This document shows, in pieces, positions 29,071 to 57,500 of a stretch of DNA of 64,000 bases. The notes under the pieces were generated by a model. The model was given only the letters and a program-made list of their open reading frames with translations, had not been told where the DNA came from and searched no databases. The first letter of the stretch is position 1, and each line of letters opens with the position of its first letter. The DNA comes from Escherichia coli (lineage in GTDB: Bacteria > Pseudomonadota > Gammaproteobacteria > Enterobacterales > Enterobacteriaceae). A program made the translations under genes and the position numbers. The stretch lies in NCBI RefSeq assembly GCF_024700885.2, contig NZ_CP117016.1; one strand, given 5' to 3'.

Positions 29071-30489
29071 TCAGACGCCGATATTTCTCAACTTCTCGCC
29101 TGCCATCAGTTTGCGTTCGATATGTTCCAGCGTGACATTTTTGGTTTCCGGAATGAGCCAGAAAGTAATGCCCACAAACGCAATGTTCAGCCCAGTGTAG
29201 AGCCAGAACGTACCGGCAGCGCCAATGCTATCAAGCAGTGTCAGGAAGGTCGCGCCGATAATCATATTCGACACCCAGTTTGTCGTCGTTGAGCAGGTGA
29301 TGCCAAAATCGCGGCATTTCAGCGGCTGAATCTCAGAGCACAGGATCCACACCACTGGCGCGGCGCTCATCGCATAACCGGCAATACACATCATCGTCAT
29401 GCCAACAGAGAGCCAGGACAAGCCACTGGAAGCCGTACCGTTATCAAACTGCATCAGGCAATAGCCCAGCACCAGAGTGCCTAACGCCATCACGCTGAAA
29501 CCAATTTTCAGAGCCGGTTTACGCCCTGCTTTATCTACCGTAAAGACCGCAATGAAGGTGGCGAACATAAAGGTCAGCCCCACGACCAGAGTCGCAATCA
29601 TCTGTTGTTCTGTGGTCGTAAAGCCCGCCATTTTGAAGATACGCGGCGCGTAGTACATGATGATGTTCATACCGGTAAACTGCTGCATCGCCTGCAACAA
29701 CATACCGAGAAACACAGCACGACGGACGTTACGGTTGATCTTAAACAGTGCCCAACCGCCCTGTTTTAACTTCAGGCTTTCACGAATTTCGTTGAGTTCT
29801 TCTCGCGCTTTTTCCGACGTATCGCGCAGCATACGCAACACTTCTTCCGCCTCAATATGACGCCCTTTTTCCGCGAGCCAGCGCGGGCTATTTGGCAGGA
29901 AGACCACCAGAATAATCAGCAGGACCGCTGGTAAAGCAAGAACCCCCAACATTGCGCGCCAGTTACCGCTATAACTGAACGCTGTATCGGATAAAAACGC
30001 CAGCACGATGCCGAGTGTGACCATCAACTGGTACATACTGATCATCTTACCGCGAACGTTTTCACTTGCCATTTCAGAAAGATACAGAGGAGCGGTGTAA
30101 GACGCGATCCCGACAGCAATGCCCAGCACCACACGAGCGGCGATTAACATCTCTACGCTGGTCGCAAAAGCGGACCCTATAGAACCGAGTACAAACAGGA
30201 TGGCCCCCGCCATCAGGCTGTATTTACGCCCCAGGCGGAACGACAGCCAACCATTAAACAGCGCACCAATTGCTGCGCCGAGCATCATGCTACTGACCAC
30301 CCATTCCTGCAAACGACTGGTCAGCACAAAGTGATCGGTAATGAACGGCAACGCTCCGGCGATTACGCCGATATCAAGACCAAATAACAATCCTGCGACC
30401 GCAGCAGCTACCGAAACAAACATATTCATACGCCGCGTATCCCGCAAAGAACGTGGCGTTAAAGCAGATTCCGTATTGATAGTAACCAT
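29071..30489 (-). CDS. araE: Arabinose:H+ symporter (MFS sugar porter)
   Basis: Internal Met of ORF 29071..30618 gives 472 aa [33 protein letters not shown]; RBS AGGA upstream. Confidence 0.9.
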
Positions 30490-30757
30490 TTTTTCCTGCC
30501 AGCAGAGAGTAAGACATAGTGAAAAAATACGTGAACAATTCACACAGGTGTCAGGTCGGAAATAGCATAAATATGGATTAAATTGCTGCGACATGTCGTT
30601 ATGTGATGGATATTCCAATTTTCAAATTAAGTTGAATAATTGAGATTATTATTAACCACCTAATTTTAAAGCAGATAAAATTCATAAAGTTCATTAATTG
30701 ATAATTGATATGGATTATTTCATAACCATGATATGGATTATGATGATCTACAGATAT

Positions 30758-30781
30758 AAAAAACCCTGCCATGCGGCAGGG
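30758..30781 (-). terminator. Intrinsic terminator downstream of kduD
   Basis: Stem CCCTGCC/GGCAGGG (30764-30770 / 30775-30781) followed on the minus strand by a U-run (plus-strand A-run 30758-30763). Confidence 0.6.
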
Positions 30782-30803
30782 TCATAAAAGTAAGAAGAAT
30801 GGA

Positions 30804-31565
30804 TTAACGCGCCAGCCAACCGCCATCCACGGCAATGGTATAACCATTCACATAATCTGAAGCACTGGAGGCAAGAAACACTACCGGCCCCATCAGGTCA
30901 CTCGGCAGTCCCCAACGGCCAGCTGGAATGCGGTCGAGAATTTCCGCGCTACGTTGTTCATCTGCCCGTAGTTGTTGAGTATTGTTGGTCGCCATGTAAC
31001 CCGGAGCTATCGCATTAACATTAATGTTGTGTTTAGCCCATTCATTCGCCATCAATCGCGTCACGCCCATCACGCCGCTTTTTGATGCGGTATAAGAAGG
31101 CACACGGATCCCGCCCTGGAAGGAGAGCATTGACGCGATATTGATAATCTTGCCGCCATTGCCTTGCGCGATAAAGTGTTTCGCCGCTGCCTGAGACATG
31201 AAGAATACGCTCTTGATATTCAGGTTCATGACATCGTCCCAGTCTTTTTCGCTGAACTCGAGAGCATCTTCGCGCCGAATCAATCCGGCGTTATTCACCA
31301 GGATATCAATATGACCAAACTCAGCTACCGCGCGATCCAGCAGTGCTGGAATGCCATCAATCTTTCGCAGATCGGCGGTCAGGCTTAAAAAACGACGCCC
31401 CAGCGCCGTGACCTGCTTGATGGTTTCAGTCGGTTCAACGATGTTAATGCCAACAATGTCACAGCCCGCTTGCGCCAGCCCCAACGCCATCCCCTGACCC
31501 AGTCCAGTATCACAACCAGTGACGACCGCAACTTTACCTTCGAGAGAAAATGCACTTAAAATCAT
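30804..31565 (-). CDS. kduD: 2-dehydro-3-deoxy-D-gluconate 5-dehydrogenase (SDR family)
   Basis: 253-aa SDR ORF with Rossmann motif TGCDTGLG. Confidence 0.95.
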   Translation of the reverse strand: MILSAFSLEGKVAVVTGCDTGLGQGMALGLAQAGCDIVGINIVEPTETIKQVTALGRRFLSLTADLRKIDGIPALLDRAVAEFGHIDILVNNAGLIRREDALEFSEKDWDDVMNLNIKSVFFMSQAAAKHFIAQGNGGKIINIASMLSFQGGIRVPSYTASKSGVMGVTRLMANEWAKHNINVNAIAPGYMATNNTQQLRADEQRSAEILDRIPAGRWGLPSDLMGPVVFLASSASDYVNGYTIAVDGGWLAR

Positions 31566-32717: not shown

Positions 32718-33899
32718 CTATTCGTCACGTTCAATGGTCAATGCCACGCCCTGGCCCCCGCCGATACAAAGCGTAGCCAGTCCTTTGCGGGCATTACGTT
32801 TCACCATTTCATGAACCAGAGAAACGAGGATTCGGCAACCGGAAGCGCCTATTGGATGACCGAGTGCGATCGCGCCACCATTGACATTGACCCGACGCTC
32901 ATCCCATTCAAGCATCTTGCCAACCGAAAGCGCCTGTGCAGCAAACGCTTCATTAGCCTCGATAAGATCGACATCAGCCAACTGCCAGCCAACACGCTCC
33001 AGGCAACGGCGGGTCGCATACACCGGCGCAATTCCCATCAATGCCGGATCTACACCAACGCTGGCAAATGCGCGGATGCGGGCCAGCACGGGTAAATTCA
33101 ACGCTCGTGCTTTGGCTTCGCTCATCATCATTACTGCAGCTGCGCCATCGTTTATGGATGATGCATTACCCGCTGTCACAGAGCCGAGACTATCAAATGA
33201 AGGATTTAAACGGGCTAAGCCTTCTGTACTGGCGTCAGTGCGTGGCTGTTCATCGGTATCTACAACCAACGTCTGACCGTTACTTTGGGTCATTACCGGG
33301 ACGATCTCATCTTTAAATCGTCCGGCGTCAATCGCCGCTCGCGCTTTTTGTTGCGAGCTAAGTGCGTAAGCATCCTGCAACTGACGGCTGATGCCATATT
33401 CGCGAGCCAGATTTTCGGCGGTGACACCAATATGATAATCATTGAAGGCATCCCACAACCCATCGTGCACAAGACTATCAACCAACTGGCTATTGCCAAG
33501 CTGTGCACCAGTGCGGCTATCAGTCAGAACATGTGGTGCGCGGCTCATGTTTTCCTGGCCACCGGCGATGACAATATCAGCCTCGCCACACTGTATCGCC
33601 TGAGTAGCCAGATGCAGTGCTTTAAGCCCGGAACCGCAAACGTCATTAATAGTGATTGCAGAAACGCTGTTAGGAAGACCACCTTTAATAGCCGATTGCC
33701 TTGCCGGATTCTGCCCTGCCCCTGCAGTCAACACCTGACCAAGAATCACTTCATCCACCGCATATGCAGGAACACCGGTACGTTCTATTAACGCTTTCAC
33801 GACCAGGCTGCCAAGTTCCACGGCGGAATGACCCGCTAACGCACCACGAAAGCAGCCGATAGGTGTCCGTAACGCCCCGACAATCACAACGTCTTTCAT
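32718..33899 (-). CDS. yqeF: Thiolase-family acetyl-CoA acetyltransferase
   Basis: ORF MMKDVVIVGALRTPIG...; thiolase fold. Confidence 0.9.
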   Translation of the reverse strand: MKDVVIVGALRTPIGCFRGALAGHSAVELGSLVVKALIERTGVPAYAVDEVILGQVLTAGAGQNPARQSAIKGGLPNSVSAITINDVCGSGLKALHLATQAIQCGEADIVIAGGQENMSRAPHVLTDSRTGAQLGNSQLVDSLVHDGLWDAFNDYHIGVTAENLAREYGISRQLQDAYALSSQQKARAAIDAGRFKDEIVPVMTQSNGQTLVVDTDEQPRTDASTEGLARLNPSFDSLGSVTAGNASSINDGAAAVMMMSEAKARALNLPVLARIRAFASVGVDPALMGIAPVYATRRCLERVGWQLADVDLIEANEAFAAQALSVGKMLEWDERRVNVNGGAIALGHPIGASGCRILVSLVHEMVKRNARKGLATLCIGGGQGVALTIERDE

Positions 33900-34153
33900 C
33901 ACAACCTCGCACCAATTAACAGTGCAATAGTAAATGATTGTTAATAACAGTTATCTTAATTGTTTAAAAAAAGTGATTTTTATCACAAAGGAAATACGCC
34001 TGACCAGCGGTCAGAGACATAACTGGCACGTAAGGTTTGCAACCACTAACCCACCAATAGAGAGGTAGAAAGGGCGTTAATCTCCCATACTTAACCTGGT
34101 TTATGGTAAATTGCCCTCCATTTTGTTTAATTTGTAGATGATACGTTCAGATA

Positions 34154-35383
34154 ATGTCTAATATTTGGTCAAAAGAAGAAACTCTGTGGAGTTTCGCGCT
34201 CTACGGCACAGCCGTTGGTGCAGGCACGCTCTTCCTTCCTATTCAGTTAGGTTCGGCAGGGGCTGTGGTCCTGTTTATTACTGCTCTGGTCGCCTGGCCT
34301 TTAACATATTGGCCACATAAAGCCTTATGCCAGTTCATCCTCTCATCAAAAACATCAGCAGGTGAAGGGATAACGGGCGCGGTAACACACTACTATGGCA
34401 AGAAGATTGGTAATCTGATTACCACGCTGTACTTCATCGCCTTTTTTGTCGTCGTGTTGATATATGCCGTGGCAATTACCAACTCACTTACGGAACAGCT
34501 GGCAAAGCATATGGTTATTGATCTTCGCATCCGTATGTTGGTGAGTCTGGGTGTTGTATTAATCCTGAATCTCATTTTTCTAATGGGACGCCATGCCACT
34601 ATTCGGGTAATGGGATTTTTGGTATTCCCATTGATTGCCTATTTCTTATTTCTTTCTATTTACCTGGTCGGTAGTTGGCAACCTGATCTATTAACTACCC
34701 AGGTAGAGTTCAATCAGAATACCCTTCACCAGATATGGATATCGATTCCCGTGATGGTTTTCGCCTTTAGCCATACGCCCATTATTTCTACGTTTGCCAT
34801 AGACAGACGTGAAAAATATGGCGAACATGCTATGGATAAATGCAAAAAAATTATGAAAGTCGCTTATCTCATCATCTGCATAAGTGTACTGTTCTTTGTC
34901 TTTAGCTGCCTGCTTTCTATTCCACCTTCGTATATTGAAGCGGCTAAAGAAGAAGGGGTTACCATTTTATCGGCGCTTTCTATGCTGCCGAACGCCCCAG
35001 CATGGTTGTCAATTTCCGGGATTATTGTCGCAGTCGTTGCGATGTCGAAATCATTCCTGGGTACGTACTTTGGCGTTATTGAAGGTGCCACGGAGGTCGT
35101 CAAAACAACACTGCAGCAGGTTGGTGTAAAGAAAAGTCGTGCATTTAACCGCGCACTATCAATTATGTTGGTATCGCTGATTACCTTCATTGTTTGTTGC
35201 ATTAACCCGAACGCGATATCGATGATTTACGCGATCAGCGGCCCGCTCATTGCCATGATACTTTTCATCATGCCTACGCTGTCAACATATCTCATCCCGG
35301 CGCTTAAACCCTGGCGTTCCATCGGAAATCTGATTACGCTGATCGTGGGTGTCCTGTGCGTATCGGTAATGTTCTTTAGCTAA
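34154..35383 (+). CDS. yqeG: Putative amino-acid permease (HAAAP/SdaC-like, about 11 TM)
   Basis: 409-aa highly hydrophobic ORF; family call from hydrophobicity pattern and genomic context. Confidence 0.8.
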   Translation: MSNIWSKEETLWSFALYGTAVGAGTLFLPIQLGSAGAVVLFITALVAWPLTYWPHKALCQFILSSKTSAGEGITGAVTHYYGKKIGNLITTLYFIAFFVVVLIYAVAITNSLTEQLAKHMVIDLRIRMLVSLGVVLILNLIFLMGRHATIRVMGFLVFPLIAYFLFLSIYLVGSWQPDLLTTQVEFNQNTLHQIWISIPVMVFAFSHTPIISTFAIDRREKYGEHAMDKCKKIMKVAYLIICISVLFFVFSCLLSIPPSYIEAAKEEGVTILSALSMLPNAPAWLSISGIIVAVVAMSKSFLGTYFGVIEGATEVVKTTLQQVGVKKSRAFNRALSIMLVSLITFIVCCINPNAISMIYAISGPLIAMILFIMPTLSTYLIPALKPWRSIGNLITLIVGVLCVSVMFFS

Positions 35384-35393
35384 TATCCATTGT

Positions 35394-35428
35394 GAATGGT
35401 TCAAAATTGCTACAATTTTGAACCATTC
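35394..35428 (+). terminator. Perfect 16-bp inverted repeat hairpin downstream of yqeG
   Basis: GAATGGTTCAAAATTG-CTA-CAATTTTGAACCATTC followed by CAGTTTTCAT. Confidence 0.5.
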
Positions 35429-35842
35429 CAGTTTTCATAATGTTCATTTGTTATAATTCCGCTCTATCACTTCTCTCGTCATATCCTAGTATTATCAGTT
35501 AGTTAAACACACAAAGAGATCTGAACATCTTAAATAAGACTATTTAAGATGCATAACTTAGATTCGCAAGATATCTTCTGGTCATTCAAAAACAATTTGC
35601 GATATAGATATTCTCATACCATGAGATAGTTATCTGAACCACCATCAACCAGGTAAGATTAAATCAGTGAAACATAATCATATTTAATAACGAGAAATGC
35701 ATTTTTAAATGCTTTACTCAGAATTATAGCAAATACAGATTAATCGCAATTTTTCCCAGCAAAATTACAAAATCATGGTGTATTGACATCATCAATAACC
35801 AATGAAATTATGCAATTATATACGGATAGGGAGGTTCTTAAC

Positions 35843-36475
35843 ATGGGGCTTTGTAGTCGTTATAAAAGTCTTACATGCAATAGTTGCTCAATGCATTGCC
35901 AAATAATGCCAGAAGAGTCACCGCGTTTGCAGTATTGCGCAAACTCGTGTTTTTGTATGTGGCCCGAAGAAAGTTCATATTTTAATCGTGGTGTGGTGGA
36001 AGGTATCTTAACAAAAAACCACAATGCGAGATTAAGCGGATATATTTTTGTCGATTTTTCAGTAAGTTTTTTACGTCTATTCCTTGAAAAAGACTGGATT
36101 GACTATCTTGCAAGTACTGACATGGGGATTGTTTTAGTCAGCGACCGAAATATGCAATCGTTAGCTAACTACTGGCGAAAACACAACTCTGCAATATCTG
36201 CTGTCATATATAATGATGATGGTCTTGATGTTGCCAATGAAAAGATCAGACAACTATTTATTGGTCGTTATTTATCATTTACCAGAGGGAACACATTAAC
36301 TCAGATGGAATTCACCATAATGGGATATATGGTTTCTGGTTATAATCCATATCAGATTGCTGAAGTTCTGGATATGGATATCCGTAGCATCTACGCGTAC
36401 AAGCAACGAATCGAAAAGAGAATGGGTGGTAAAATAAACGAGTTATTTATTCGTTCACATTCGGTCCAACATTGA
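35843..36475 (+). CDS. yqeH: LuxR/FixJ-type HTH transcriptional regulator (ETT2-island remnant)
   Basis: AT-rich ORF; strong RBS GGGAGG 9 nt upstream of the Met at 35843 (ORF track frame opens at 35783); C-terminal LuxR-like HTH segment QMEFTIMGYMVSGYNPYQIAEVLDMDIRSIYAYKQRIEKRMG. Confidence 0.7.
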   Translation: MGLCSRYKSLTCNSCSMHCQIMPEESPRLQYCANSCFCMWPEESSYFNRGVVEGILTKNHNARLSGYIFVDFSVSFLRLFLEKDWIDYLASTDMGIVLVSDRNMQSLANYWRKHNSAISAVIYNDDGLDVANEKIRQLFIGRYLSFTRGNTLTQMEFTIMGYMVSGYNPYQIAEVLDMDIRSIYAYKQRIEKRMGGKINELFIRSHSVQH

Positions 36476-36688
36476 TACTCAATAATCTGCCAGAATCATA
36501 CTCTGCTTATACGGGCATCTATTGAAATGCCCGTATTTTACAAATAAGCAGTACCCCCAAGAGTAAACAACATGGTATTTAAAACCATCACACGAAAAAT
36601 TCAGAAGCATTACGAAATATGAATTTACAAACAGGTGATGCTGCCAACTTACTGATTTAGTGTATGATGGTGTTTTTGAGGTGCTCCA

Positions 36689-36964
36689 GTGGCTTCTGTT
36701 TCTATCAGCTGTCCCTCCTGTTCAGCTACTGACGGGGTGGTGCGTAACGGCAAAAGCACCGCCGGACATCAGCGCTATCTCTGCTCTCACTGCCGTAAAA
36801 CATGGCAACTGCAGTTCACTTACACCGCTTCTCAACCCGGTACGCACCAGAAAATCATTGATATGGCCATGAATGGCGTTGGATGCCGGGCAACTGCCCG
36901 CATTATGGGCGTTGGCCTCAACACGATTTTACGTCACTTAAAAAACTCAGGCCGCAGTCGGTAA
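36689..36964 (+). CDS. insA: IS1 InsA (transposition inhibitor / N-terminal part of InsAB' transposase)
   Basis: 91-aa [43 protein letters not shown] (zinc-finger CxxC...CxxC). Confidence 0.9.
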
Positions 36965-37386
36965 CCTCGCGCATACAGCCGGGCAGTGACGTCATCGTCT
37001 GCGCGGAAATGGACGAACAGTGGGGCTATGTCGGGGCTAAATCGCGCCAGCGCTGGCTGTTTTACGCGTATGACAGTCTCCGGAAGACGGTTGTTGCGCA
37101 CGTATTCGGTGAACGCACTATGGCGACGCTGGGGCGTCTTATGAGCCTGCTGTCACCCTTTGACGTGGTGATATGGATGACGGATGGCTGGCCGCTGTAT
37201 GAATCCCGCCTGAAGGGAAAGCTGCACGTAATCAGCAAGCGATATACGCAGCGAATTGAGCGGCATAACCTGAATCTGAGGCAGCACCTGGCACGGCTGG
37301 GACGGAAGTCGCTGTCGTTCTCAAAATCGGTGGAGCTGCATGACAAAGTCATCGGGCATTATCTGAACATAAAACACTATCAATAA
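36883..37386 (+). CDS. insB: IS1 InsB frame (expressed as InsAB' transposase by -1 frameshift)
   Basis: ORF in the -1 frame relative to insA; slippery A6C motif at 36940-36946 inside the insA/insB overlap. Confidence 0.85.
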
Positions 37387-37638
37387 GTTGGAGTCATTAC
37401 CCAGTCTGTCGATGACATTACAATGCCAGGATGGGCTTTATCTTCACGTTGTGCTATCGCGGTGTGAGAGGTGCAACTGCCGCCAACGTTAGGTTATACT
37501 GTCATCTCACCGTGTAACTTAACGTGACAGTTACTAAGGGCGGATCACAATGGTAGAACTCCTAAGCAAATTAAATAGGTAACTGTTTAAGTTGCTGACA
37601 GAGAAGACTTTTTTGGTCTTCTCCACCTGGGGAGATTC

Positions 37639-37712
37639 TGGAGCGGGCGAAGGGAATCGAACCCTCGTATAGAGCTTGGGAAGCTCTCGTTCTACCATTG
37701 AACTACGCCCGC
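37639..37712 (-). tRNA. glyU: tRNA-Gly (anticodon CCC)
   Basis: Minus strand reads GCGGGCGTAGTTCAATGGTAGAACGAGAGCTTCCCAAGCTCTATACGAGGGTTCGATTCCCTTCGCCCGCTCCA; cloverleaf with anticodon CCC and encoded CCA end. Confidence 0.9.
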
Positions 37713-37790
37713 TTCGAGATGCGTAAGGCATTATAAACCTTACGCTCTCCTTAGCAAGTGCCGCGCTGCTGACTGCTGATTAATTCGCCA

Positions 37791-38543
37791 TCAGCATTTT
37801 GGCTTGCTGCTCTGAGGCGGCAAGTAACGCAGCGGATCAATTGCCGTAGCACGGTAACGAATCTGGAAATGCAGGCGAACCGATGCCGCATCAGTGCTCC
37901 CCATAGTGGCGATTTTTTGCCCAGCCTTCACGCTTTGCCCATTATTTACCAGCATCGTGTCATTATGGGCGTAAGCCGTAATGTAATCTTCACTGTGTTT
38001 AATCATGATGAGATTACCGTAGCCACGCAGCTGGTTGCCCACATACACCACCTTTCCTGCACCCGCGGCGTAAATAGGTGTACCTCGTGGAGCTGAGATA
38101 TCAATCCCTTTATTGCCGCCATCAGCTGTCGAATACGGCATGATAACTTTCCCTGTCGTTGGCCATAACCAACAACGTTGCCCTACTGGCGGCCAGGAAG
38201 ATTTCGGTACTGCTGATGACGGTGTAACCGATGCGGTTTTGGTCGTTGATTTGGCGGTTGATTTACGTGTACTGCTACTTTTCGCCCCACCCAGTTTTAG
38301 TTTCTGACCAACTTCAATGGTGTAAGGGGGGGAAATGCCGTTCAGTCGCGCCAGCTCTTTTACGCTGGTTCCCGTGGTGCGCGAAATACGATATAGCGTA
38401 TCCCCCCGTTTCACGGTGTAAACGGAGCCGGAATACGTTCCTGTATCGGATGATTTGCTACCCGAGCAGCCCGCCAAAAGCAGTCCAACCGATAACAACA
38501 TCACGATACCCAGAGATTTTTTATTCAGGCGTCCCGCACTCAA
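37791..38543 (-). CDS. ygeR: LysM + M23-family peptidase-domain lipoprotein
   Basis: ORF 37791..38567; lipobox LLAGCSG, LysM segment YTVKRGDTLYRISRTTGTSVKELARLNGI, C-terminal M23-like domain; probable TTG start with RBS GAGGA 6 nt upstream. Confidence 0.8.
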   Translation of the reverse strand: MSAGRLNKKSLGIVMLLSVGLLLAGCSGSKSSDTGTYSGSVYTVKRGDTLYRISRTTGTSVKELARLNGISPPYTIEVGQKLKLGGAKSSSTRKSTAKSTTKTASVTPSSAVPKSSWPPVGQRCWLWPTTGKVIMPYSTADGGNKGIDISAPRGTPIYAAGAGKVVYVGNQLRGYGNLIMIKHSEDYITAYAHNDTMLVNNGQSVKAGQKIATMGSTDAASVRLHFQIRYRATAIDPLRYLPPQSSKPKC

Positions 38544-42660: not shown

Positions 42661-44439
42661 TTATGTGTTTAACAACTCATATTTCTTAATCTTGCGATAG
42701 AGCGTAGCAATGCCGATGCCCAGTTCATCAGCAACTTGCTTCTTGCTGTTATGACGTGAAAGCGCCTCGCGGATCATTTGCTTTTCCATCTCCTCCAGCG
42801 CCGTGCCGCCCGCATCATCGAGTGCCAGGTGCGCCTCGTTGACCTCTGTTACATCACTTTGCTCCGTTGTGCCATTATTCAGCAGATTTGGCGGCAATAG
42901 CGTGCTGTCGATAACTTCACCTGAAGGAACCACGTTAACCAGATATTCCATCAAATTGCTTAACTCGCGCAGGTTTCCGGGCCAACGATGCTTACGCAAT
43001 ATTTCGACGACATCGGGAGCAATGCCCGGATAAACCGATCCCAGACGACGGGTATGCAGATGTAAAAAGTAATGCACCAGTAGTTCAATATCTTCCTGAC
43101 GTTCACGCAGCGGTGGCAGAGTTATCGGGATAACATTAAGTCGGTAGAAGAGATCTTCGCGGAATTTACCTTCGGCAATGAACTGGGCCAAATTCTGGTT
43201 AGTTGCAGAAATGATGCGAATGTCGACTTGTATTGGGCTACTGGCACCAATCGGCAGAATTTCACGCGCCTCAATAGCGCGCAGTAATTTAGCCTGCAAC
43301 ATTAATGGCATATCACCTATTTCATCGAGAAACAGCGTGCCCGTATTCGCCGCCTGAATCAACCCTGTTTTACCGTTGGCAGAAGCGCCAGTAAATGCGC
43401 CTTTAACATAACCGAACAGTTCGCTCTCCAGAAGCTGCTCCGGAATCGCGGCACAGTTGATAGCAATAAAGGGTTTATTCCGTCTTCCGCTCAACTTATG
43501 GATTGCACGGGCGACAACTTCTTTACCCGTGCCGCTTTCACCAACCACCATAACGCTGGATGGGCTGGGTGCAATACGGCTAATGAGTCGTTTTAATTGC
43601 CGCATAACACGGCACTCGCCAACCAATTGTTCAATATGCGGTTCATCAGGTGCATTTGCTACAGAAAAACTGGTATGCGATTGGTGAAACGCCATTAAAA
43701 ATAATTGTCGGCCCTGAATGTTATGCAATTGACCAATGATTAATTCACTTTTATCGTCCCACGAAACAATATGCTGCATATGTCCATGGGTAAAATTACT
43801 CTCAAATGTTAATGGTCTGAAACGGATAGGTTTCCCAATAATATTATTTTGTACAACACCAAGTGTTTTTAAGGCAGTCTGATTAACAAACTGAATCCGA
43901 TTATCGTCATCAACAACTAATACACCCTGATCCATATTATCGATCATGGTCGCGAATATTTTACTGATGTTATCTCCTGGTCCCTGATCCTCCAGAAGTT
44001 TCGAAACAAAAATGGTGGATATATGGCGAACGTAATCAGAAAATTCGCGTAAATTATCACTAATATGCTCTTGTTGCTCGTGGGTAACGGCAATCAAACT
44101 TATCACCCCAACACAACGATCCTGTAAAATGACAGGCGTACCCAGAAATGCTTTTTCGCGGCAATTTTCTTTACTATCGCAACCTTCGCAAAGGGGATCG
44201 AAGCGAGACTGTGTCACAACTTTTTCAGTTTTCGTTTCCAGGACGTGGCGGAGCAGGCGTGAGTTGCCGCTCAACTGGCGACCAAGAAACTTCCCATACG
44301 CGCCCGTTCCGGCGACGCGACACAAGTTTTCATCAACGATCTCAACCTCAAGCTGCAAAACGCTGGCAAGCATTCTGGCAAAACGCTGAATTGTCGGTTG
44401 AATTTGCATCAATACTGACTGCGTAGTAGCAAGCTCCAT
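42661..44439 (-). CDS. ygeV: Sigma54-dependent transcriptional activator (bacterial enhancer-binding protein)
   Basis: 592-aa ORF with AAA+ sigma54 interaction domain: Walker A GESGTGKE, GAFTGA motif (KGAFTGA), ESELFGY, and C-terminal HTH. Confidence 0.9.
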   Translation of the reverse strand: MELATTQSVLMQIQPTIQRFARMLASVLQLEVEIVDENLCRVAGTGAYGKFLGRQLSGNSRLLRHVLETKTEKVVTQSRFDPLCEGCDSKENCREKAFLGTPVILQDRCVGVISLIAVTHEQQEHISDNLREFSDYVRHISTIFVSKLLEDQGPGDNISKIFATMIDNMDQGVLVVDDDNRIQFVNQTALKTLGVVQNNIIGKPIRFRPLTFESNFTHGHMQHIVSWDDKSELIIGQLHNIQGRQLFLMAFHQSHTSFSVANAPDEPHIEQLVGECRVMRQLKRLISRIAPSPSSVMVVGESGTGKEVVARAIHKLSGRRNKPFIAINCAAIPEQLLESELFGYVKGAFTGASANGKTGLIQAANTGTLFLDEIGDMPLMLQAKLLRAIEAREILPIGASSPIQVDIRIISATNQNLAQFIAEGKFREDLFYRLNVIPITLPPLRERQEDIELLVHYFLHLHTRRLGSVYPGIAPDVVEILRKHRWPGNLRELSNLMEYLVNVVPSGEVIDSTLLPPNLLNNGTTEQSDVTEVNEAHLALDDAGGTALEEMEKQMIREALSRHNSKKQVADELGIGIATLYRKIKKYELLNT

Positions 44440-44808
44440 AGCTTTACCTTCCAGACTTACTTAAAAGTCGATCATTGAAGACGTTGATGGTTCACAGATC
44501 ATGATGATATTAACTCAGGCGAAATTGGCTTTGATAAAAACATAAGATTTTTATCACTTTCTAATGAAATTATGGAAGAGATATCACATTTCTATATCAA
44601 TATGAGAATTACGGCGGTGAGTTTATCAAACTGAAGAGAGAGCGCCTGTTCCTTTATCTTATTTCTGATACTTAGCAGCAAATAAATAACGCGATAAAAA
44701 AAGCCAAACGTTTTCGTATTTTACAAACAACCAGAAGCTGGCATCAATTTGTGATCAACCCCACACATTACCCGTCAAATTAGTCTTTTGCAGCCGCTTG
44801 GATAATTC

Positions 44809-44824
44809 TGGCATAGTTATTGTT
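44809..44824 (+). promoter_or_regulatory. Weak candidate sigma54 promoter upstream of ygeW
   Basis: TGGCATA-GTTA-TTGT: -24 element good, -12 is GT rather than GC; TGATAA/TTATCA-type repeats further upstream (44531-44633). Confidence 0.3.
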
Positions 44825-44915
44825 AGTCCCAGGTATAGCTGTGAAAAGACCAATCACTTTTGGCAAGTCACAGTGAAATAAACCTCTTTGCCTGTCATTC
44901 CACTACCGGGACTTT

Positions 44916-46106
44916 ATGATGAAAACTGTTAATGAGCTGATTAAGGATATCAATTCGCTGACCTCTCACCTTCACGAGAAAGATTTTTTGTTAACGTGGG
45001 AACAGACGCCAGATGAACTGAAACAAGTACTGGACGTTGCCGCAGCATTAAAAGCACTGCGTGCTGAAAACATCTCAACCAAAGTCTTTAATAGTGGATT
45101 AGGTATTTCCGTATTCCGCGACAACTCCACCCGTACCCGTTTCTCTTATGCTTCCGCGCTTAACCTGCTCGGCCTTGCACAGCAAGATCTCGACGAAGGC
45201 AAATCACAAATCGCTCACGGCGAAACCGTGCGTGAAACCGCCAATATGATCTCCTTCTGCGCCGATGCCATCGGTATTCGTGACGATATGTATCTGGGCG
45301 CAGGCAACGCCTATATGCGTGAAGTTGGCGCTGCACTTGATGACGGTTACAAGCAGGGTGTGCTGCCGCAACGTCCGGCTTTAGTGAACCTGCAATGCGA
45401 TATTGACCACCCGACTCAGTCAATGGCTGACCTGGCATGGTTACGTGAACACTTTGGTTCACTGGAAAACCTGAAAGGTAAAAAAATCGCCATGACCTGG
45501 GCCTACTCCCCAAGCTATGGCAAACCGCTCTCTGTACCACAAGGCATCATCGGTCTGATGACTCGCTTCGGTATGGATGTCACCCTGGCCCATCCGGAAG
45601 GCTACGACCTGATCCCGGATGTCGTTGAAGTCGCTAAAAACAATGCTAAAGCCTCCGGCGGTAGCTTCCGTCAGGTCACCAGCATGGAAGAAGCCTTCAA
45701 AGACGCAGACATCGTTTATCCGAAGTCATGGGCACCTTACAAAGTGATGGAAGAGCGTACTGAATTGCTGCGTGCGAACGATCACGAAGGCTTAAAAGCA
45801 CTGGAAAAACAGTGTCTGGCACAGAACGCGCAACACAAAGACTGGCATTGTACTGAAGAGATGATGGAACTGACCCGTGATGGCGAAGCCCTGTACATGC
45901 ACTGCCTGCCAGCTGATATCAGCGGCGTATCCTGCAAAGAAGGTGAAGTGACTGAAGGCGTATTCGAAAAATACCGTATCGCGACCTACAAAGAAGCCAG
46001 CTGGAAGCCTTATATCATCGCCGCGATGATCCTGTCCCGCAAATACGCCAAACCAGGTGCACTGCTCGAGCAACTGCTGAAAGAAGCGCAAGAACGCGTG
46101 AAATAA
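44916..46106 (+). CDS. ygeW: Carbamoyltransferase-family protein (ATCase/OTCase fold)
   Basis: 396-aa ORF with carbamoyl-phosphate binding STRTR motif (DNSTRTRFSYASA). Confidence 0.9.
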   Translation: MMKTVNELIKDINSLTSHLHEKDFLLTWEQTPDELKQVLDVAAALKALRAENISTKVFNSGLGISVFRDNSTRTRFSYASALNLLGLAQQDLDEGKSQIAHGETVRETANMISFCADAIGIRDDMYLGAGNAYMREVGAALDDGYKQGVLPQRPALVNLQCDIDHPTQSMADLAWLREHFGSLENLKGKKIAMTWAYSPSYGKPLSVPQGIIGLMTRFGMDVTLAHPEGYDLIPDVVEVAKNNAKASGGSFRQVTSMEEAFKDADIVYPKSWAPYKVMEERTELLRANDHEGLKALEKQCLAQNAQHKDWHCTEEMMELTRDGEALYMHCLPADISGVSCKEGEVTEGVFEKYRIATYKEASWKPYIIAAMILSRKYAKPGALLEQLLKEAQERVK

Positions 46107-52760: not shown

Positions 52761-53531
52761 CTAATTCACAAATCTGCGCGCGATTGCAGGATGTTCTTGT
52801 ATATCGCCCAGCCAGATTGCCTCTACGTCGTGTTGTTGCAGCGGTTGAAGGAGCTCGCTTTGTGCAATCGCATTCTCACATTGAGAAAAACGGTTAATGA
52901 ACCAGACTCGCCGACAACCTTGCGGTACGTTTTTAAATGCGCCCTGAGGGTGGCGAACCAGCGCAACGAGATCGCTCAGTTGCAAGGTTGCATCAGGTGT
53001 TAACCCGGTAATATCAGCAAACTGCGACCAGCGATGGACATTTTCTGTGCTCACTTTCGCGCCCAAAATATGTCCTCCCATCACAGCAATCACGCAGCAA
53101 CTGCTTTTGGGTATGCAAGGTTCGTGCTCATCAGGCGCTTTTAACGTCATTCCACGCGAGCCATCTGCCTCAATGAGAATTACGTCACACTCTGGTCGTT
53201 GCACCAGTGCATCAATCGCTTCTGGCGTAAATCCCTGCACTTTTCCCTGGTTCGCTTTCCAGCTGTGAAAACAAAATGAAATGGGGGATGTAAGAGACGC
53301 ATGAGGAAGCATGGCGGGATCACGACAGAAAACCACGGGCCAGTGAGACGTTGGCATAAACATATGTGTCGTCGTAGTGATTAACACACGCCTGCCGCTA
53401 GCCTGGAGCAGTTCTGCCAGCCAAAAAAGCAAGCTGGTTTTCCCCCCAGCCCCAACAACAGAAATCACAGTGGGACGTTTCTGCGCGCCTAAATCAATGA
53501 ATAATGCCGATGGGTCAACTATACTTTTCAC
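52761..53531 (-). CDS. yqeC: P-loop NTPase-like accessory protein (selenium-dependent molybdenum hydroxylase marker)
   Basis: 256-aa ORF with Walker A VVGAGGKTS. Confidence 0.85.
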   Translation of the reverse strand: MKSIVDPSALFIDLGAQKRPTVISVVGAGGKTSLLFWLAELLQASGRRVLITTTTHMFMPTSHWPVVFCRDPAMLPHASLTSPISFCFHSWKANQGKVQGFTPEAIDALVQRPECDVILIEADGSRGMTLKAPDEHEPCIPKSSCCVIAVMGGHILGAKVSTENVHRWSQFADITGLTPDATLQLSDLVALVRHPQGAFKNVPQGCRRVWFINRFSQCENAIAQSELLQPLQQHDVEAIWLGDIQEHPAIARRFVN

Positions 53532-53633
53532 GAGTCTTTATGACCTCTCTGGGATAAATTATCCCCAACTTAATCCATCAGGAAGTAACGCAATTATCAG
53601 GCGTTATTAGCCCCTATAAATAATGGAACCACT

Positions 53634-54212
53634 ATGTCAGCCATCGACTGTATAATTACCGCTGCCGGATTATCATCAAGAATGGGGCAATGGAAAATGA
53701 TGTTACCCTGGCAACAGGGAACAATTCTTGATACAAGTATCAAAAATGCGTTGCAGTTTTGTAGCCGAATTATTTTAGTCACCGGCTATCGTGGTAATGA
53801 ACTGCACGAGCGTTATGCGAACCAGAGCAATATCACTATTATCCACAACCCAGATTATGCGCAGGGTTTACTAACATCAGTAAAGGCCGCAGTACCCGCG
53901 GTAAAAACAGAATATTGTTTTCTCACCCACGGTGACATGCCTACCCTCACCATCGATATTTTTAGAAAAATCTGGTCGTTACGAAATGATGGCGCAATAC
54001 TGCCACTCCATAATGGCATTCCCGGCCATCCGATTTTAGTGTCAAAGCCATGCCTGATGCAGGCAATCCAGCGTCCCAATATCACCAATATGCGTCAGGC
54101 ACTCCTTATGGGAGATCATTATTCCGTCGAAATAGAAAATGCAGAAATAATTTTAGATATTGATACTCCGGACGACTTTATTACAGCGCAAAAAAGGTAT
54201 ACTAAAATTTAG
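53634..54212 (+). CDS. mocA: Molybdenum cofactor cytidylyltransferase (MobA-like NTP transferase)
   Basis: 192-aa ORF MSAIDCIITAAGLSSRMG (nucleotidyltransferase G-rich loop). Confidence 0.85.
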   Translation: MSAIDCIITAAGLSSRMGQWKMMLPWQQGTILDTSIKNALQFCSRIILVTGYRGNELHERYANQSNITIIHNPDYAQGLLTSVKAAVPAVKTEYCFLTHGDMPTLTIDIFRKIWSLRNDGAILPLHNGIPGHPILVSKPCLMQAIQRPNITNMRQALLMGDHYSVEIENAEIILDIDTPDDFITAQKRYTKI

Positions 54213-54436
54213 AAAATGTAGTTAAACGATTGCGTTCAAATATTTAATCCCTCCAGCACTCTTTATCATAATGATAAGGAATCACTGATTTTGAGAAAAG
54301 AGAAAAAGTGATAAATGGGCTGGCAATAATAATTTTCAGGAGTGATTTTAATTCTCATTTGGCACCTGTGAGTTCATTCACAAAAAGCTCCTAAGTTTCG
54401 AGCCGCCTCACATTTTTTTATATTTCCCGCCAAACC

Positions 54437-54451
54437 TGGCAAGAGTGGTGC
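54437..54451 (+). promoter_or_regulatory. Candidate sigma54 promoter upstream of ygfK
   Basis: TGGCAAG-AGTG-GTGC with GG-N10-GC spacing, about 85 nt upstream of the ygfK ATG; perfect palindrome TTATCA-TAA-TGATAA at 54263-54277. Confidence 0.3.
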
Positions 54452-54533
54452 GATTGTTGCTCTATCCCCCTAAACCACCGGATTTCTCAACACCGGTCAC
54501 TCAATGATATCTGTATAAGCTAAGGAGAGGGTT

Positions 54534-57500
54534 ATGGGGGATATTATGCGTCCCATTCCGTTTGAGGAACTTTTGACGCGCATATTTGATGAATACCAAC
54601 AACAACGCTCAATCTTTGGTATTCCCGAGCAACAGTTTTACTCACCCGTAAAAGGTAAAACTGTTAGCGTCTTCGGTGAAACCTGTGCCACTCCCGTCGG
54701 CCCTGCCGCTGGCCCGCACACGCAGCTCGCGCAAAATATTGTCACTTCCTGGCTGACTGGCGGGCGCTTCATCGAACTAAAAACCGTCCAAATTCTTGAC
54801 CGTCTGGAGCTGGAAAAGCCCTGTATCGATGCCGAAGACGAGTGCTTTAACACCGAATGGTCTACCGAATTTACCCTGCTTAAAGCCTGGGATGAATACC
54901 TCAAAGCCTGGTTTGCCCTGCACCTTCTCGAAGCGATGTTCCAGCCTTCTGATTCCGGTAAATCGTTCATCTTTAATATGAGCGTCGGTTATAACCTCGA
55001 AGGTATTAAGCAACCGCCGATGCAACAGTTCATCGACAATATGATGGATGCATCTGACCATCCGAAATTCGCTCAATATCGCGATACGCTGAATAAATTA
55101 CTCCAGGATGACGCATTTTTAGCCCGCCACGGATTGCAGGAAAAACGCGAATGCCTGCAGGCCTTACCGGCACGCATCCCCACCAGCATGGTAGAAGGCG
55201 TTACCCTCTCCACCATGCACGGCTGTCCTCCGCATGAAATCGAAGCCATTTGCCGCTACATGCTGGAAGAAAAAGGGCTCAATACCTTTGTGAAACTCAA
55301 CCCGACCTTACTGGGGTACGCGCGTGTTCGTGAGATCCTCGATGTCTGCGGTTTCGGTTACATAGGCTTAAAAGAAGAGTCATTTGATCACGACCTCAAG
55401 CTGACGCAAGCGCTGGAAATGCTGGAACGCCTGATGGTACTGGCAAAAGAAAAATCACTCGGCTTTGGCGTAAAACTGACTAACACTCTCGGCACCATCA
55501 ACAATAAAGGCGCACTGCCTGGTGAAGAGATGTATATGTCAGGCCGTGCGCTGTTCCCGCTCTCCATCAATGTTGCAGCAGTTCTCTCTCGCGCCTTTGA
55601 CGGCAAACTGCCCATTTCTTATTCCGGTGGTGCCAGTCAGCTGACTATCCGCGATATTTTTGATACTGGTATTCGCCCTATTACTATGGCAACCGACCTG
55701 CTGAAACCTGGCGGCTATCTGCGCTTAAGTGCCTGCATGCGCGAGCTGGAAGGCTCCGACGCCTGGGGGCTTGACCATGTTGACGTCGAACGCCTGAACA
55801 AACTGGCAGCAGACGCGTTAACCATGGAATACACTCAGAAACACTGGAAGCCAGAAGAGCGTATTGAAGTGGCAGAAGACCTGCCGCTGACCGACTGCTA
55901 CGTTGCACCGTGCGTTACTGCTTGCGCCATTAAACAGGATATTCCGGAATACATCCGTCTGCTTGGCGAACACCGCTATGCCGACGCACTGGAACTCATC
56001 TACCAACGCAACGCCCTGCCCGCCATTACCGGTCATATTTGCGATCACCAGTGCCAATACAACTGTACCCGCCTGGATTACGACAGTGCGCTGAATATCC
56101 GCGAACTGAAAAAAGTCGCGCTGGAAAAAGGTTGGGATGAATATAAGCAACGCTGGCACAAACCAGCCGGTTCTGGTTCACGCCATCCGGTTGCCGTGAT
56201 TGGTGCAGGTCCGGCGGGTCTGGCAGCAGGTTACTTCCTTGCCAGAGCGGGCCATCCGGTTACGCTGTTTGAACGCGAAGCCAATGCGGGCGGCGTGGTG
56301 AAAAATATCATTCCTCAGTTCCGTATTCCTGCAGAGTTAATTCAGCACGATATCGATTTTGTTGCCGCTCACGGCGTGAAATTTGAGTATGGCTGCTCAC
56401 CCGATTTGACCGTTGAACAGTTAAAAAATCAGGGCTTCCACTATGTTCTGATTGCCACCGGCACTGATAAAAATAGCGGTGTGAAACTGGCGGGCGACAA
56501 CCAAAATGTCTGGAAATCACTCCCCTTCCTGCGTGAATACAACAAGGGCACAGCGCTCAAGCTGGGCAAACATGTGGTCGTTGTCGGGGCGGGTAACACG
56601 GCAATGGACTGCGCTCGTGCGGCGTTACGCGTTCCAGGCGTAGAAAAAGCAACGGTCGTTTACCGTCGTTCACTGCAAGAGATGCCAGCATGGCGCGAAG
56701 AGTATGAAGAAGCGTTGCACGACGGTGTGGAGTTCCGTTTCCTGAATAATCCGGAACGTTTCGATGCTGATGGCACCTTAACCTTGCGCGTTATGTCGCT
56801 TGGCGAACCTGATGAGAAAGGTCGTCGCCGTCCGGTTGAAACCAACGAAACAGTAACACTGCATGTAGACAGCCTGATCACCGCCATTGGTGAACAGCAG
56901 GATACTGAAGCCCTGAATGCGATGGGCGTGCCGCTGGACAAAAACGGCTGGCCAGACGTCGACCATAATGGCGAAACTCGTCTGACTGACGTCTTTATGA
57001 TCGGCGACGTACAGCGCGGACCATCCTCCATTGTCGCTGCTGTCGGAACCGCGCGTCGGGCGACCGATGCCATCCTTAGTCGGGAAAACATCCGTTCCCA
57101 CCAGAACGATAAATACTGGAACAACGTCAATCCGGCGGAAATCTATCAACGCAAAGGCGATATCTCTATCACCCTGGTGGATAGCGACGATCGTGACGCG
57201 TTTGTCGCCCAGGAAGCCGCACGCTGCCTTGAATGTAACTACGTTTGCAGCAAGTGTGTGGATGTCTGCCCGAACCGCGCCAACGTATCCATTGCGGTCC
57301 CTGGCTTCCAGATCCGTTTCCAGACGCTGCACCTCGACGCTTACTGTAACGAATGCGGCAACTGCGCTCAGTTCTGCCCGTGGAACGGTAAACCGTACAA
57401 AGACAAAATCACCGTCTTCAGCCTGTCGCAAGACTTTGATAACAGCAGCAACCCTGGCTTCCTTGTGGAAGATTGCCGGGTACGAGTACGTCTGAATAAC

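Follow-up and report, generated by a model that had tools for sequence, protein, structure and literature searches.

The window analysed here is a 64-kb stretch (64,000 nucleotides) of Escherichia coli DNA in which an AT-rich segment lies between yqeG and a tRNA-Gly gene. The segment begins on the plus strand with the core, non-island AT-rich spacer that follows yqeG (35384..35557, 174 nt, delimited by alignment to the island-free genome L008), which holds the yqeG terminator hairpin (35394-35428, plus strand, 16 perfect pairs, -22.5 kcal/mol, z -7.7) and a second inverted repeat (35526-35551, plus strand) just 5' of the island boundary. Then, on the same strand, comes the left end of ETT2, the part of the island that has survived (35558..36633, 1,076 bp); this DNA is missing from empty-site genomes, and its boundary was placed at 35557/35558 by alignment with them. 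Next come an IS1A-like IS1 (36634..37401, plus strand, 768 bp), the final 237 bp left from a phage-like integrative element of 12.9 kb at the tRNA-Gly gene (37402..37638) and, on the minus strand, that tRNA-Gly(CCC) gene itself, glyU (37639..37712; ARAGORN; Rfam tRNA score 71.6 bits), the anchor of both ETT2 and the phage-like element. An E-value search of 35200-37800 with Rfam for non-coding RNA returned the tRNA only.

The coding sequence of yqeH (35843..36475, plus strand, 210 aa) is defined by its open reading frame and by RefSeq protein WP_001305805.1 in identical loci. It is preceded by a ribosome-binding site GGAGG (35830-35834, plus strand, recognised by sequence) and, farther upstream, by a promoter-like site (35783..35811, plus strand; TTGACA, 17 nt, AATTAT, with TG upstream; 10 of 12 consensus positions). 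Because such sites are no more numerous in the region than in shuffled sequences, this one is treated as a candidate promoter. In K-12, genomic SELEX located binding of RNA polymerase holoenzyme in the yqeG/yqeH spacer (PMC5493296). Downstream of yqeH lies its intrinsic terminator (36510..36539, plus strand), with the stem UACGGGCAU / AUGCCCGUA followed by UUUU; the fold of 36476-36560 reaches -20.6 kcal/mol (z -4.0), and 0 of 200 shuffles were as stable. The terminator is situated 94 nt 5' of IS1, so that the yqeH transcription unit is untouched: ribosome-binding site, coding sequence and terminator are all intact. WP_001305805.1 is identical in MLI114, SMS-3-5 and 98232, which carry the deletion described below, and in the ETT2-bearing 1190, ST38 and EC12.

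A 16-codon ORF (36572..36622, plus strand) is part of the yqeH-yqeI spacer. It exists as the first-pass annotation described it, except that the gap to IS1, which starts at 36634, is 11 nt and not 12. The ORF was considered as a truncated yqeI and rejected in that role, the start of yqeI in intact loci lying 176 nt beyond the deletion junction and the ATG being ATA in 5 of 7 strains. Its start codon is unconserved, and on these comparisons it is a non-coding ORF and no gene. In K-12 the yqeH/yqeI spacer is a listed H-NS-associated 'promoter island' (PMC3661553).

Composition and identity of the AT-rich stretch

The GC content of 35384-36633 is 0.345, compared with 0.509 for the whole window, in agreement with the first-pass annotation, which had described about 35430-36630 as strongly AT-rich relative to its flanks (visibly about 30-35% GC). 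Sliding-window GC and codon adaptation, both proposed there as checks, were computed. The stretch is the lowest-GC 1250-bp segment of the 64 kb (z = -4.6; minimum 0.344 at 35381), with 0.01% of 1250-bp windows equally low, and 300-bp windows across it range from 29 to 38% GC. The coding sequence of yqeH ranks lowest among 37 long ORFs in GC (0.376, z -6.7), in GC3 (0.341, z -4.3) and in a Sharp-Li-type CAI computed with hand-entered w-values (0.20, z -1.8); a window-referenced adaptation index, added as a check, again places it last (z -3.0). Rare codons account for 8.1% in yqeH, against 3.2% elsewhere. Further AT-rich intergenic troughs are present elsewhere in the window.

That the stretch is a horizontally acquired island remnant is confirmed by genomes with an empty site and genomes with an intact island, which together identify the island as ETT2. 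Empty-site genomes have yqeG, 316 nt and then tRNA-Gly, with no island. Strain 1190 and an ST38 genome (L010) carry intact ETT2 at the same site (yqeG / tRNA-Gly glyU), and 35558-36633 is 100% identical to strain 1190, in which ETT2 is near-intact. The GC content of this part, 0.351, is like that of the deleted ETT2 part in L010 (0.359); the published value for ETT2 is 36.9% (PMC11068852). The type III secretion island ETT2 is represented in 35558-36633 by a stub of its left end. The island had previously been taken to begin at 35384, which does not hold for the first 174 nt: they are core spacer (GC 0.305) found where no island is present, and 91% identical to the 174 nt that immediately follow yqeG in L008. 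A direct repeat flanking ETT2 was sought, and only a weak 5/8 similarity was found. The ETT2 secretion apparatus genes (sctC, sctN, sctV and others) are absent from the window, yqeH alone being left; as all of them were deleted, the locus is an ETT2 remnant and not a functional island.

Local regulatory or structural constraint could in principle keep native DNA AT-rich with no horizontal acquisition, and the equally AT-rich adjoining core spacer (30.5% GC), the only 44.7% GC of the yqeG gene and the other intergenic troughs fit such an account. Against it stand the exact presence/absence polymorphism with an empty site, the common 36% GC of the whole 27-kb island, and the coding sequence itself, which, besides the spacers, is an outlier in GC3 and codon usage. 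As an explanation of the stretch it is extremely improbable; it is refuted for 35558-36633 by the empty-site genomes and true only of the first 174 nt.

IS1 and the loss of two mobile elements

The start of IS1 at 36634 is fixed by an exact left inverted repeat and a break in the alignment. The element has the 768 bp, the terminal inverted repeats and the insA/insB' frameshift (insA 36689-36964, insB' frame to 37386) of an IS1, and is annotated in L001 as an IS1A-family transposase with programmed frameshift. IS1 normally gives 8-9 bp duplications and is a known cause of deletions (PMC12428005). No target duplication of 8-9 bp was found around this copy, the flanks TTACAAACA and CAGTCTGTC being different, as is expected of a deletion joint. 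No second IS1 was found in the window.

To the right of IS1, 37402-37638 matches the tRNA-proximal end of the phage-like element in 265 of 5426 genomes. In L010 this element lies between direct repeats of 20 nt from the tRNA 3' end; it encodes integrase, tail, capsid and replication proteins (PHROGs). A right junction within ETT2 was considered and rejected, as the 237 bp have no match in K-12 or strain 1190 and belong to the phage-like element; no ETT2 sequence was found at the right junction. The remnant also has a 22-nt inverted match to the tRNA, about what chance would give.

In comparison with the undeleted layout of the ST38 genome, IS1 stands in place of 39,300 bp (L010 8464-47763), comprising about 26.4 kb of ETT2 and about 12.7 kb of the phage-like element. 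The deletion edges lie 158 nt past the yqeH stop codon and 237 nt short of the tRNA, and one end is in very AT-rich DNA (29% GC within 50 nt each side). The ancestor had full ETT2 and the 12.9-kb phage-like element beside tRNA-Gly, as the ST38 genome still does, and one IS1-associated event removed 39,300 bp and left a single IS1. Among 5426 complete genomes the two junctions share an identical set of 5 carriers, evidence that a single event produced both; this rarity, together with nearly identical IS1 flanks among the five, suggests that the deletion is recent, perhaps so recent that the five genomes would not yet show any decay of yqeH. With the deletion adjoining IS1 mapped against the undeleted locus, the earlier suggestion that yqeH had been stranded by a downstream deletion is substantiated.

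Two routes compete solely as sub-mechanisms of this event. Adjacent deletion by a single IS1 (intramolecular and replicative) is well documented according to the passage of PMC12428005 that cites Turlan & Chandler 1995. An IS1 in the yqeH-yqeI spacer could also have recombined homologously with a second copy in the phage-like element, an exchange that would equally yield one IS1 with no target duplication. The spacer has been struck by IS1 repeatedly and independently (L020, L021, L022), and IS1 lies inside the phage-like element of another strain (L005). None of the 5426 genomes has one junction alone, hence no two-IS1 intermediate was seen, and recombination is given somewhat less than even odds.

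The YqeH protein and its missing kinase

YqeH had been described from its sequence as a LuxR-type HTH protein, and both the Pfam GerE match (23.7 bits against a cutoff of 23.5, residues 151-195) and the Foldseek matches uphold this. The best NCBIfam match is EcpR NF047921 (73.8 bits, E 1.7e-20, residues 31-202); as this score is far under the EcpR equivalog cutoff of 300, YqeH is placed as a paralogue within the EcpR_N (PF27348) family, to which a precomputed assignment also refers it. The AF2 model (pLDDT 91.3, pTM 0.88) has NarL/FixJ-type regulators (DesR, RcsB, VpsT, EvgA) as top Foldseek matches, and its predicted fold includes a receiver (CheY-like) fold. By sequence, a search against solved structures produced no significant hit (its best, E 0.069, covered only the HTH), no similarity of the N-terminal domain to receiver domains was found, and in a profile comparison with RcsB only the HTH aligns (95.5% probability), so that the receiver likeness rests on the predicted fold. 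The TviA model is matched by 27 of 74 YqeH-family representatives, the YqeH of the window falling short of the E 0.001 threshold. By predicted fold and by homology, YqeH consists of a small cysteine-rich N-terminus, a receiver-like alpha/beta EcpR_N domain and a LuxR/GerE HTH, and is a paralogue of EcpR/MatA related to TviA.

No kinase adjoins yqeH in the window, in K-12, in strain 1190, in Citrobacter koseri or in the other homologue contexts examined. The first-pass annotation had called the regulator an orphan. Its statement that the window holds no partner kinase stands; the missing kinase is no puzzle, since the characterised relatives need none. MatA and DctR were reportedly identified as RcsB partners by Pannen et al. 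in 2016. The closest characterised relatives, EcpR/MatA and TviA, assist RcsB as kinase-independent auxiliary partners, TviA being small, encoded on an island and acting through RcsB; H-NS represses partners of this type (PMC5651002). The lost genes yqeI and yqeJ look like genuine partners of YqeH; they accompany the yqeH homologue of C. koseri as well.

Of 74 relatives of YqeH, 64 conserve Asp101, where the third strand ends. After strand 1, position 42 is acidic (D or E) in 39 of the 74, and W-P-[DE]-x-N follows that strand. The conservation of Asp101 indicates that some phosphorylation or ligand binding may be possible. Together with the receiver-like predicted fold, these acidic residues would suit a true orphan response regulator, phosphorylated at Asp101 by an unlinked histidine kinase, as the first-pass remark on an absent partner kinase implies. 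Such a role is nevertheless quite unlikely: the Thr/Ser and Lys of the receiver active-site quintet (acidic pair, phospho-acceptor Asp, Thr/Ser, Lys) are not identifiable in conserved columns at the expected places (sequence columns and predicted strands of the 74 relatives), receiver-domain similarity is missing at the sequence level, the characterised EcpR/MatA and TviA act without a kinase of their own, and yqeH has no linked kinase in E. coli, in C. koseri or in any further context examined.

One new detail, seen in the sequences, is a conserved four-cysteine motif of the YqeH subfamily. The N-terminal C-x2-C-x3-C-x(10-13)-C (C12, C15, C19 and C32 in YqeH) occurs in 28-32 of the 74 representatives, some as distant as about 25% identity, and also in the C. 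koseri homologue after correction of its start codon; it is missing in shorter members without the N-terminal extension, EcpR-like ones included. The motif could bind a redox-active metal or iron-sulfur cluster and not structural zinc, which would make YqeH a self-contained one-component sensor; this is a speculative reading, held at well below even odds. If true, YqeH could relay redox or metal status to genes for motility and biofilm, perhaps via RcsB, and this would explain both the purifying selection on yqeH long after decay of the secretion system and how yqeH can stand alone in this window.

Retention of yqeH and comparison with known systems

Sequence comparison indicates that yqeH is under strong purifying selection: pN/pS is about 0.03-0.04 (7-9 synonymous vs 0-1 non-synonymous differences), and variable columns amount to 2.1% of the coding sequence vs 6-11% in the flanks. 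Among 5426 complete genomes 3966 retain yqeH, 3606 yqeI-J and 1287 sctN; about 2,700 keep yqeH and have no T3SS ATPase gene. About 27% are without yqeH, and loss has also occurred in another lineage (EC291). The K-12 yqeG-ygeI fragment forms H-NS hairpins, and the orthologous region of K-12 is transcriptionally silent under laboratory conditions (PMC12460168). AT content, TpA steps and A/T tracts are about 2-fold enriched in the stretch; the H-NS 10-mer motif is unenriched at <=2 mismatches and modestly enriched at <=3, which mostly restates AT content. Published YqeH-dependent genes (flagellar, biofilm and espE3) are outside ETT2, and the phenotypes of the APEC yqeH mutant were only partly complemented (PMC9014576, PMC10463865).

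The best explanation as a whole, to which we assign a probability of roughly 0.75, is that the locus is an ETT2 stub made by an IS1 deletion, with yqeH intact as a kinase-free, H-NS-quieted, free-standing regulator. As with EcpR/MatA and TviA, YqeH would need no cognate kinase; yqeH would normally be held quiet by H-NS on its AT-rich DNA, and the protein, once made, would act as a transcription factor on genes outside the island, possibly paired with RcsB. A role outside the island would explain selection that keeps yqeH while the secretion apparatus decays. The conserved neighbours yqeI and yqeJ were lost in the deletion lineage, which would leave yqeH as a free-standing regulator, not a broken part.

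The gene might instead be a silent, functionless relic, spared by the point at which the deletion stopped, with too little time since then for decay. An AT-rich context that in K-12 is H-NS-bound and non-transcribed, its low codon adaptation, the restriction of an apparently recent deletion to five genomes with near-identical IS1 flanks and the losses of yqeH elsewhere in the species would all agree with this. The species-wide pN/pS, the many genomes that keep yqeH without the ATPase gene, a unit intact from candidate promoter to terminator and the mutant phenotypes reported in APEC argue for a working gene, and we regard a relic as unlikely.

The finding holds but is unremarkable, a neat case of processes already known, in which an AT-rich, H-NS-targeted island is eroded by IS1 and a regulator outlives its machinery. 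It adds a near-total ETT2 deletion isoform with only yqeH left, which was not found in the ETT2 review (PMC11068852), evidence for the removal of two mobile elements in one event, evidence of the yqeH-yqeI spacer as a recurrent IS1 target, and genome counts in which, out of three ETT2 loci (yqeH, yqeI-yqeJ, sctN), yqeH is kept most often. SMS-3-5 and MLI114 are natural "yqeH-only" backgrounds, free of interference by other ETT2 regulators, and suit the study of an island-independent role, of a possible RcsB pairing and of the cysteine motif.

With the NarL/FixJ regulators (RcsB, EvgA, DesR, VpsT, CsgD) YqeH shares a predicted receiver-like domain and a LuxR HTH; it differs in its lack of N-terminal sequence similarity, in a quintet that looks incomplete or unrecognisable from the sequence and in having no linked kinase. 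To TviA, the Vi-capsule regulator of Salmonella Typhi, the similarity is distant. EcpR (MatA) resembles YqeH in its EcpR_N and GerE architecture, its size, its AT-rich setting under H-NS repression, which is predicted for yqeH as well, and its influence on motility. YqeH, however, has the extra N-terminal C-x2-C-x3-C...C, the EcpR profile aligning only from residue 31; EcpR serves the ecp/mat fimbrial operon, whereas YqeH adjoins a secretion-system island; and EcpR is an RcsB auxiliary partner, whereas for YqeH the pairing is putative. The deletion resembles known IS1 adjacent deletions in its one complete IS1 at a novel joint without target duplication; nothing about it is unusual, and it is notable only for the two acquired elements lost together. 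With ETT2 elsewhere the locus shares the site between yqeG and glyU, the low GC (35-37%) and yqeH as first gene, and its erosion by IS and deletion agrees with the published isoforms (PMC11068852); here, in contrast, nothing of the island remains except yqeH and its flanks, 443 nt in all, and the neighbouring phage-like element was lost in the same deletion as the island.

Base composition and origin of the interval

The AT-rich interval 35384-36633 is of island origin from 35558 onward, lies beside a single IS1-associated loss of 39.3 kb, and carries an intact and conserved yqeH. The gene order here is yqeF (32718-33902, minus strand), yqeG (34154-35383), yqeH (35843-36475), IS1 (36634-37401) and tRNA-Gly(CCC) (37639-37712, minus strand), followed by actS/ygeR and then xdhA.

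With 34.5% GC, against 50.9% for the window, the interval is the minimum-GC 1250-bp stretch across the 64 kb (z -4.6). Among 37 long ORFs yqeH ranks last in GC (0.376), GC3 (0.341) and a Sharp-Li-type CAI (0.20; w-values entered by hand), and again in a window-referenced adaptation index; rare codons occur at 2.5 times their frequency in other genes. Because its GC content and codon usage are distinguishable from the rest of the window, the AT-richness reported in the first-pass annotation is confirmed, and the interval is a clear outlier. Further low-GC troughs (34-42%) at 30400-30850, 43438-45164 and 53403-54706 are probably intergenic regulatory regions, e.g. araE-kduD and ygeV-ygeW.

A survey of 5426 complete E. 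coli genomes found part of the interval in 5373 and at least 80% in 3952, while many match its first 171-174 nt only. AGR5151, one of the latter, has yqeG, 316 nt and then tRNA-Gly, and alignment places the left island boundary at 35557/35558. Window 34090-36633 is 100% identical to strain 1190, in which yqeI, yqeJ, yqeK, ygeG and ygeH come next, together with a set of type III secretion genes that is nearly complete and reaches to 150 nt from the tRNA. Judged by these alignments, the yqeH-bearing DNA is the ETT2 island, which has a published GC content of 36.9% (PMC11068852) and is well known in degraded form from K-12. Empty-site and island-bearing genomes together uphold the proposed horizontal acquisition and refute native AT-rich DNA as the source of the low GC, except in the first 174 nt, which are core DNA; the description of the whole interval as island remnant therefore holds from 35558 onward.

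An inverted repeat, CATCTTAAATA-agac-TATTTAAGATG (35526-35551, z -3.8), is separated from the left boundary by 6 nt and occurs in island-free genomes too. A review (PMC11068852) assigns yqeF and yqeG to ETT2, an assignment that finds no support in the empty-site comparison; yqeG is low in both GC (44.7%) and CAI (0.236), yet occurs in island-free genomes.

The IS1-associated loss

Compared with the undeleted layout of the ST38 genome L010, the window lacks L010 8464-47763 (39,300 bp), which bears out the downstream deletion proposed beside yqeH. The lost DNA comprises about 26.4 kb of ETT2, a 150-nt core spacer and about 12.7 kb of a phage-like element. Of an AT-rich tract of about 27 kb, about 1.1 kb is left, a contraction that might loosen H-NS silencing. 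The IS1 is a full 768-bp copy with an exact inverted repeat and insA/insB', and no target duplication was found at its flanks, TTACAAACA / CAGTCTGTC; IS1 usually produces duplications of 8-9 bp, and deletions are a known product (PMC12428005). When junction-specific 60-mers were run against the 5426 complete genomes, both joints were found in the same five (SMS-3-5, MLI114, GIMC1405, WWCOL-236 and 98232), a distribution that indicates a single event; MLI114 and the window are identical over 7 kb. The deletion may have arisen next to one IS1 or by recombination between two IS1 copies; none of the 5426 genomes carries one junction only.

The 237 bp that separate IS1 from the tRNA (37402-37638) have no match in K-12 or strain 1190, but correspond to the tRNA-proximal end of a phage-like element at the same tRNA in about 265 of the 5426 genomes. 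In L010, yqeH and ETT2 are followed by this 12.9-kb element (L010 35051-48000), whose last 237 bp correspond to the window's remnant and at whose borders 20 nt of the tRNA 3' end stand as a direct repeat. It encodes an integrase, tail-fibre/baseplate proteins, tape-measure-like proteins, a major head protein and a replication initiator, and is very small for an element carrying capsid and tail genes. Within the element, a stretch of 1.5-2.3 kb is free of annotated genes in four genomes (L010 44115-46388, L005 6168-7679, L006 4464-6803, L007 5385-7399); searching Rfam by E-value with the L010 copy gave nothing credible. The remnant (37538-37559) and the tRNA-Gly 5' half (37689-37710) share an inverted match of 22 nt at 82%, which by rough estimate is at about chance level.

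In other lineages IS1 has arrived independently in the yqeH-yqeI spacer (36476-36633 in the window): L020 carries a simple insertion, in L022 part of yqeI is gone beside the insertion, L021 shows a rearrangement with rtcR at the joint, and in L009 a deletion took yqeH too. The left target of the window's deletion has 29% GC (50 nt either side), and the same spacer in K-12 is a listed H-NS-associated promoter island (PMC3661553). IS1 lies at most a few hundred bp from the yqeH 3' end in 61 genomes, with at least four junction types beyond the window's. A 16-codon ORF (36572-36622) does lie just before IS1 as described, at 11 nt rather than 12. It was rejected as a gene, being located in this spacer and having ATA for ATG in 5 of 7 strains. 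The start codon holds the single variable position in its 51 nt among the 7 strains, and the 96 nt upstream hold 17 variable columns; 36572-36622 may be a conserved regulatory segment ahead of yqeI, and is not a coding signal.

Retention and affiliation of YqeH

A GGAGG ribosome-binding site lies 8 nt upstream of the yqeH ATG, with a candidate promoter at 35783-35811. The terminator (36510-36539, z -4.0) ends 94 nt upstream of IS1, so that the transcription unit is untouched. The RefSeq allele WP_001305805.1 is common to deletion carriers and full-island strains. Among 7 diverse strains 2.1% of columns vary in the CDS against 6-11% in the flanks, and more divergent pairs show 7-9 synonymous and 0-1 non-synonymous differences (pN/pS about 0.03-0.04). 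Retention falls along the island (yqeH 3966, yqeI-yqeJ 3606 and sctN 1287 of 5426 genomes), making yqeH without a secretion system the usual state, as in K-12, whereas genomes with yqeH as sole survivor are uncommon. In the window's lineage, which is young, yqeH is possibly a dead relic, but the species-wide selection and retention contradict this.

The LuxR-type assignment is supported by a marginal Pfam GerE match (residues 151-195) and a predicted NarL/FixJ-like fold. Among NCBIfam models EcpR matches best (E 1.7e-20), but its 73.8 bits fall short of the cutoff of 300; the precomputed domain is PF27348 (EcpR_N). The family is small (121 representative clusters in 1.84 billion proteins); in an alignment of 74 members, 72 hit the EcpR model and 27 the TviA model. 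A confident AF2 model on the family alignment (pLDDT 91.3, pTM 0.88) retrieved full-length NarL/FixJ-type regulators as top solved structures in Foldseek (DesR, spr1814, RcsB, VpsT and EvgA), although by sequence the HTH alone aligns with RcsB. By predicted fold and homology, YqeH has a receiver-like plus LuxR architecture and is kin to EcpR/TviA.

Conserved positions are W40-P41-[DE]-x-N44 after strand 1, D71-F-S73 after strand 2, D101 after strand 3 (64/74), W85, A108 and Y110-W111; no Thr/Ser or Lys belonging to the receiver quintet was identified among them. The receiver-like fold and Asp101 would suit a classical orphan response regulator, against which stand the incomplete quintet, the lack of a linked kinase in the contexts compared and the characterised relatives. 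EcpR/MatA and TviA are auxiliary RcsB partners that act without a dedicated kinase, and partners of this type are repressed by H-NS (PMC5651002). No missing partner kinase is therefore expected, although its absence was rightly noted. The lost neighbours that look like true partners are yqeI (ToxR-like winged helix) and yqeJ, both linked to the yqeH homologue beside rcnR/rcnA in Citrobacter koseri. Another homologue (43% identity) lies directly upstream of an autotransporter gene, in keeping with a family that controls surface structures locally.

An N-terminal C-x2-C-x3-C-x(10-13)-C motif (35876-35938, residues 12-32) is present in 28-32 of 74 representatives and missing from shorter members without the N-terminal extension, EcpR-like ones among them. 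It appears in the C. koseri homologue once a mis-called start is moved upstream (L011 2926), and may serve as structural zinc site or sensor.

Regulation and comparison with known systems

In K-12 the yqeG-ygeI fragment is silent and forms H-NS-dependent chromosomal hairpins (PMC12460168). Genomic SELEX placed RNA polymerase holoenzyme on the yqeG/yqeH spacer (PMC5493296), and loss of DctR reduces yqeH transcription (PMC8259166). In avian pathogenic strains, yqeH deletion reduces motility, biofilm and virulence and lowers flagellar, lsr, c-di-GMP and espE3 expression, all outside ETT2, with partial complementation only (PMC9014576, PMC10463865). We infer that YqeH in the window's strain would regulate core genes without needing a kinase, under restraint by H-NS and possibly in partnership with RcsB.

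ETT2 and its attrition, yqeH as a regulator, regional H-NS silencing and IS1 deletions are already known, and the exact window sequence is already annotated in RefSeq. New, in a minor way, are the yqeH-only ETT2 isoform with the phage-like element removed as well, the repeated IS1 arrivals in the yqeH-yqeI spacer, the retention gradient from yqeH through yqeI-yqeJ to sctN, and the conserved cysteine motif of a YqeH subfamily.
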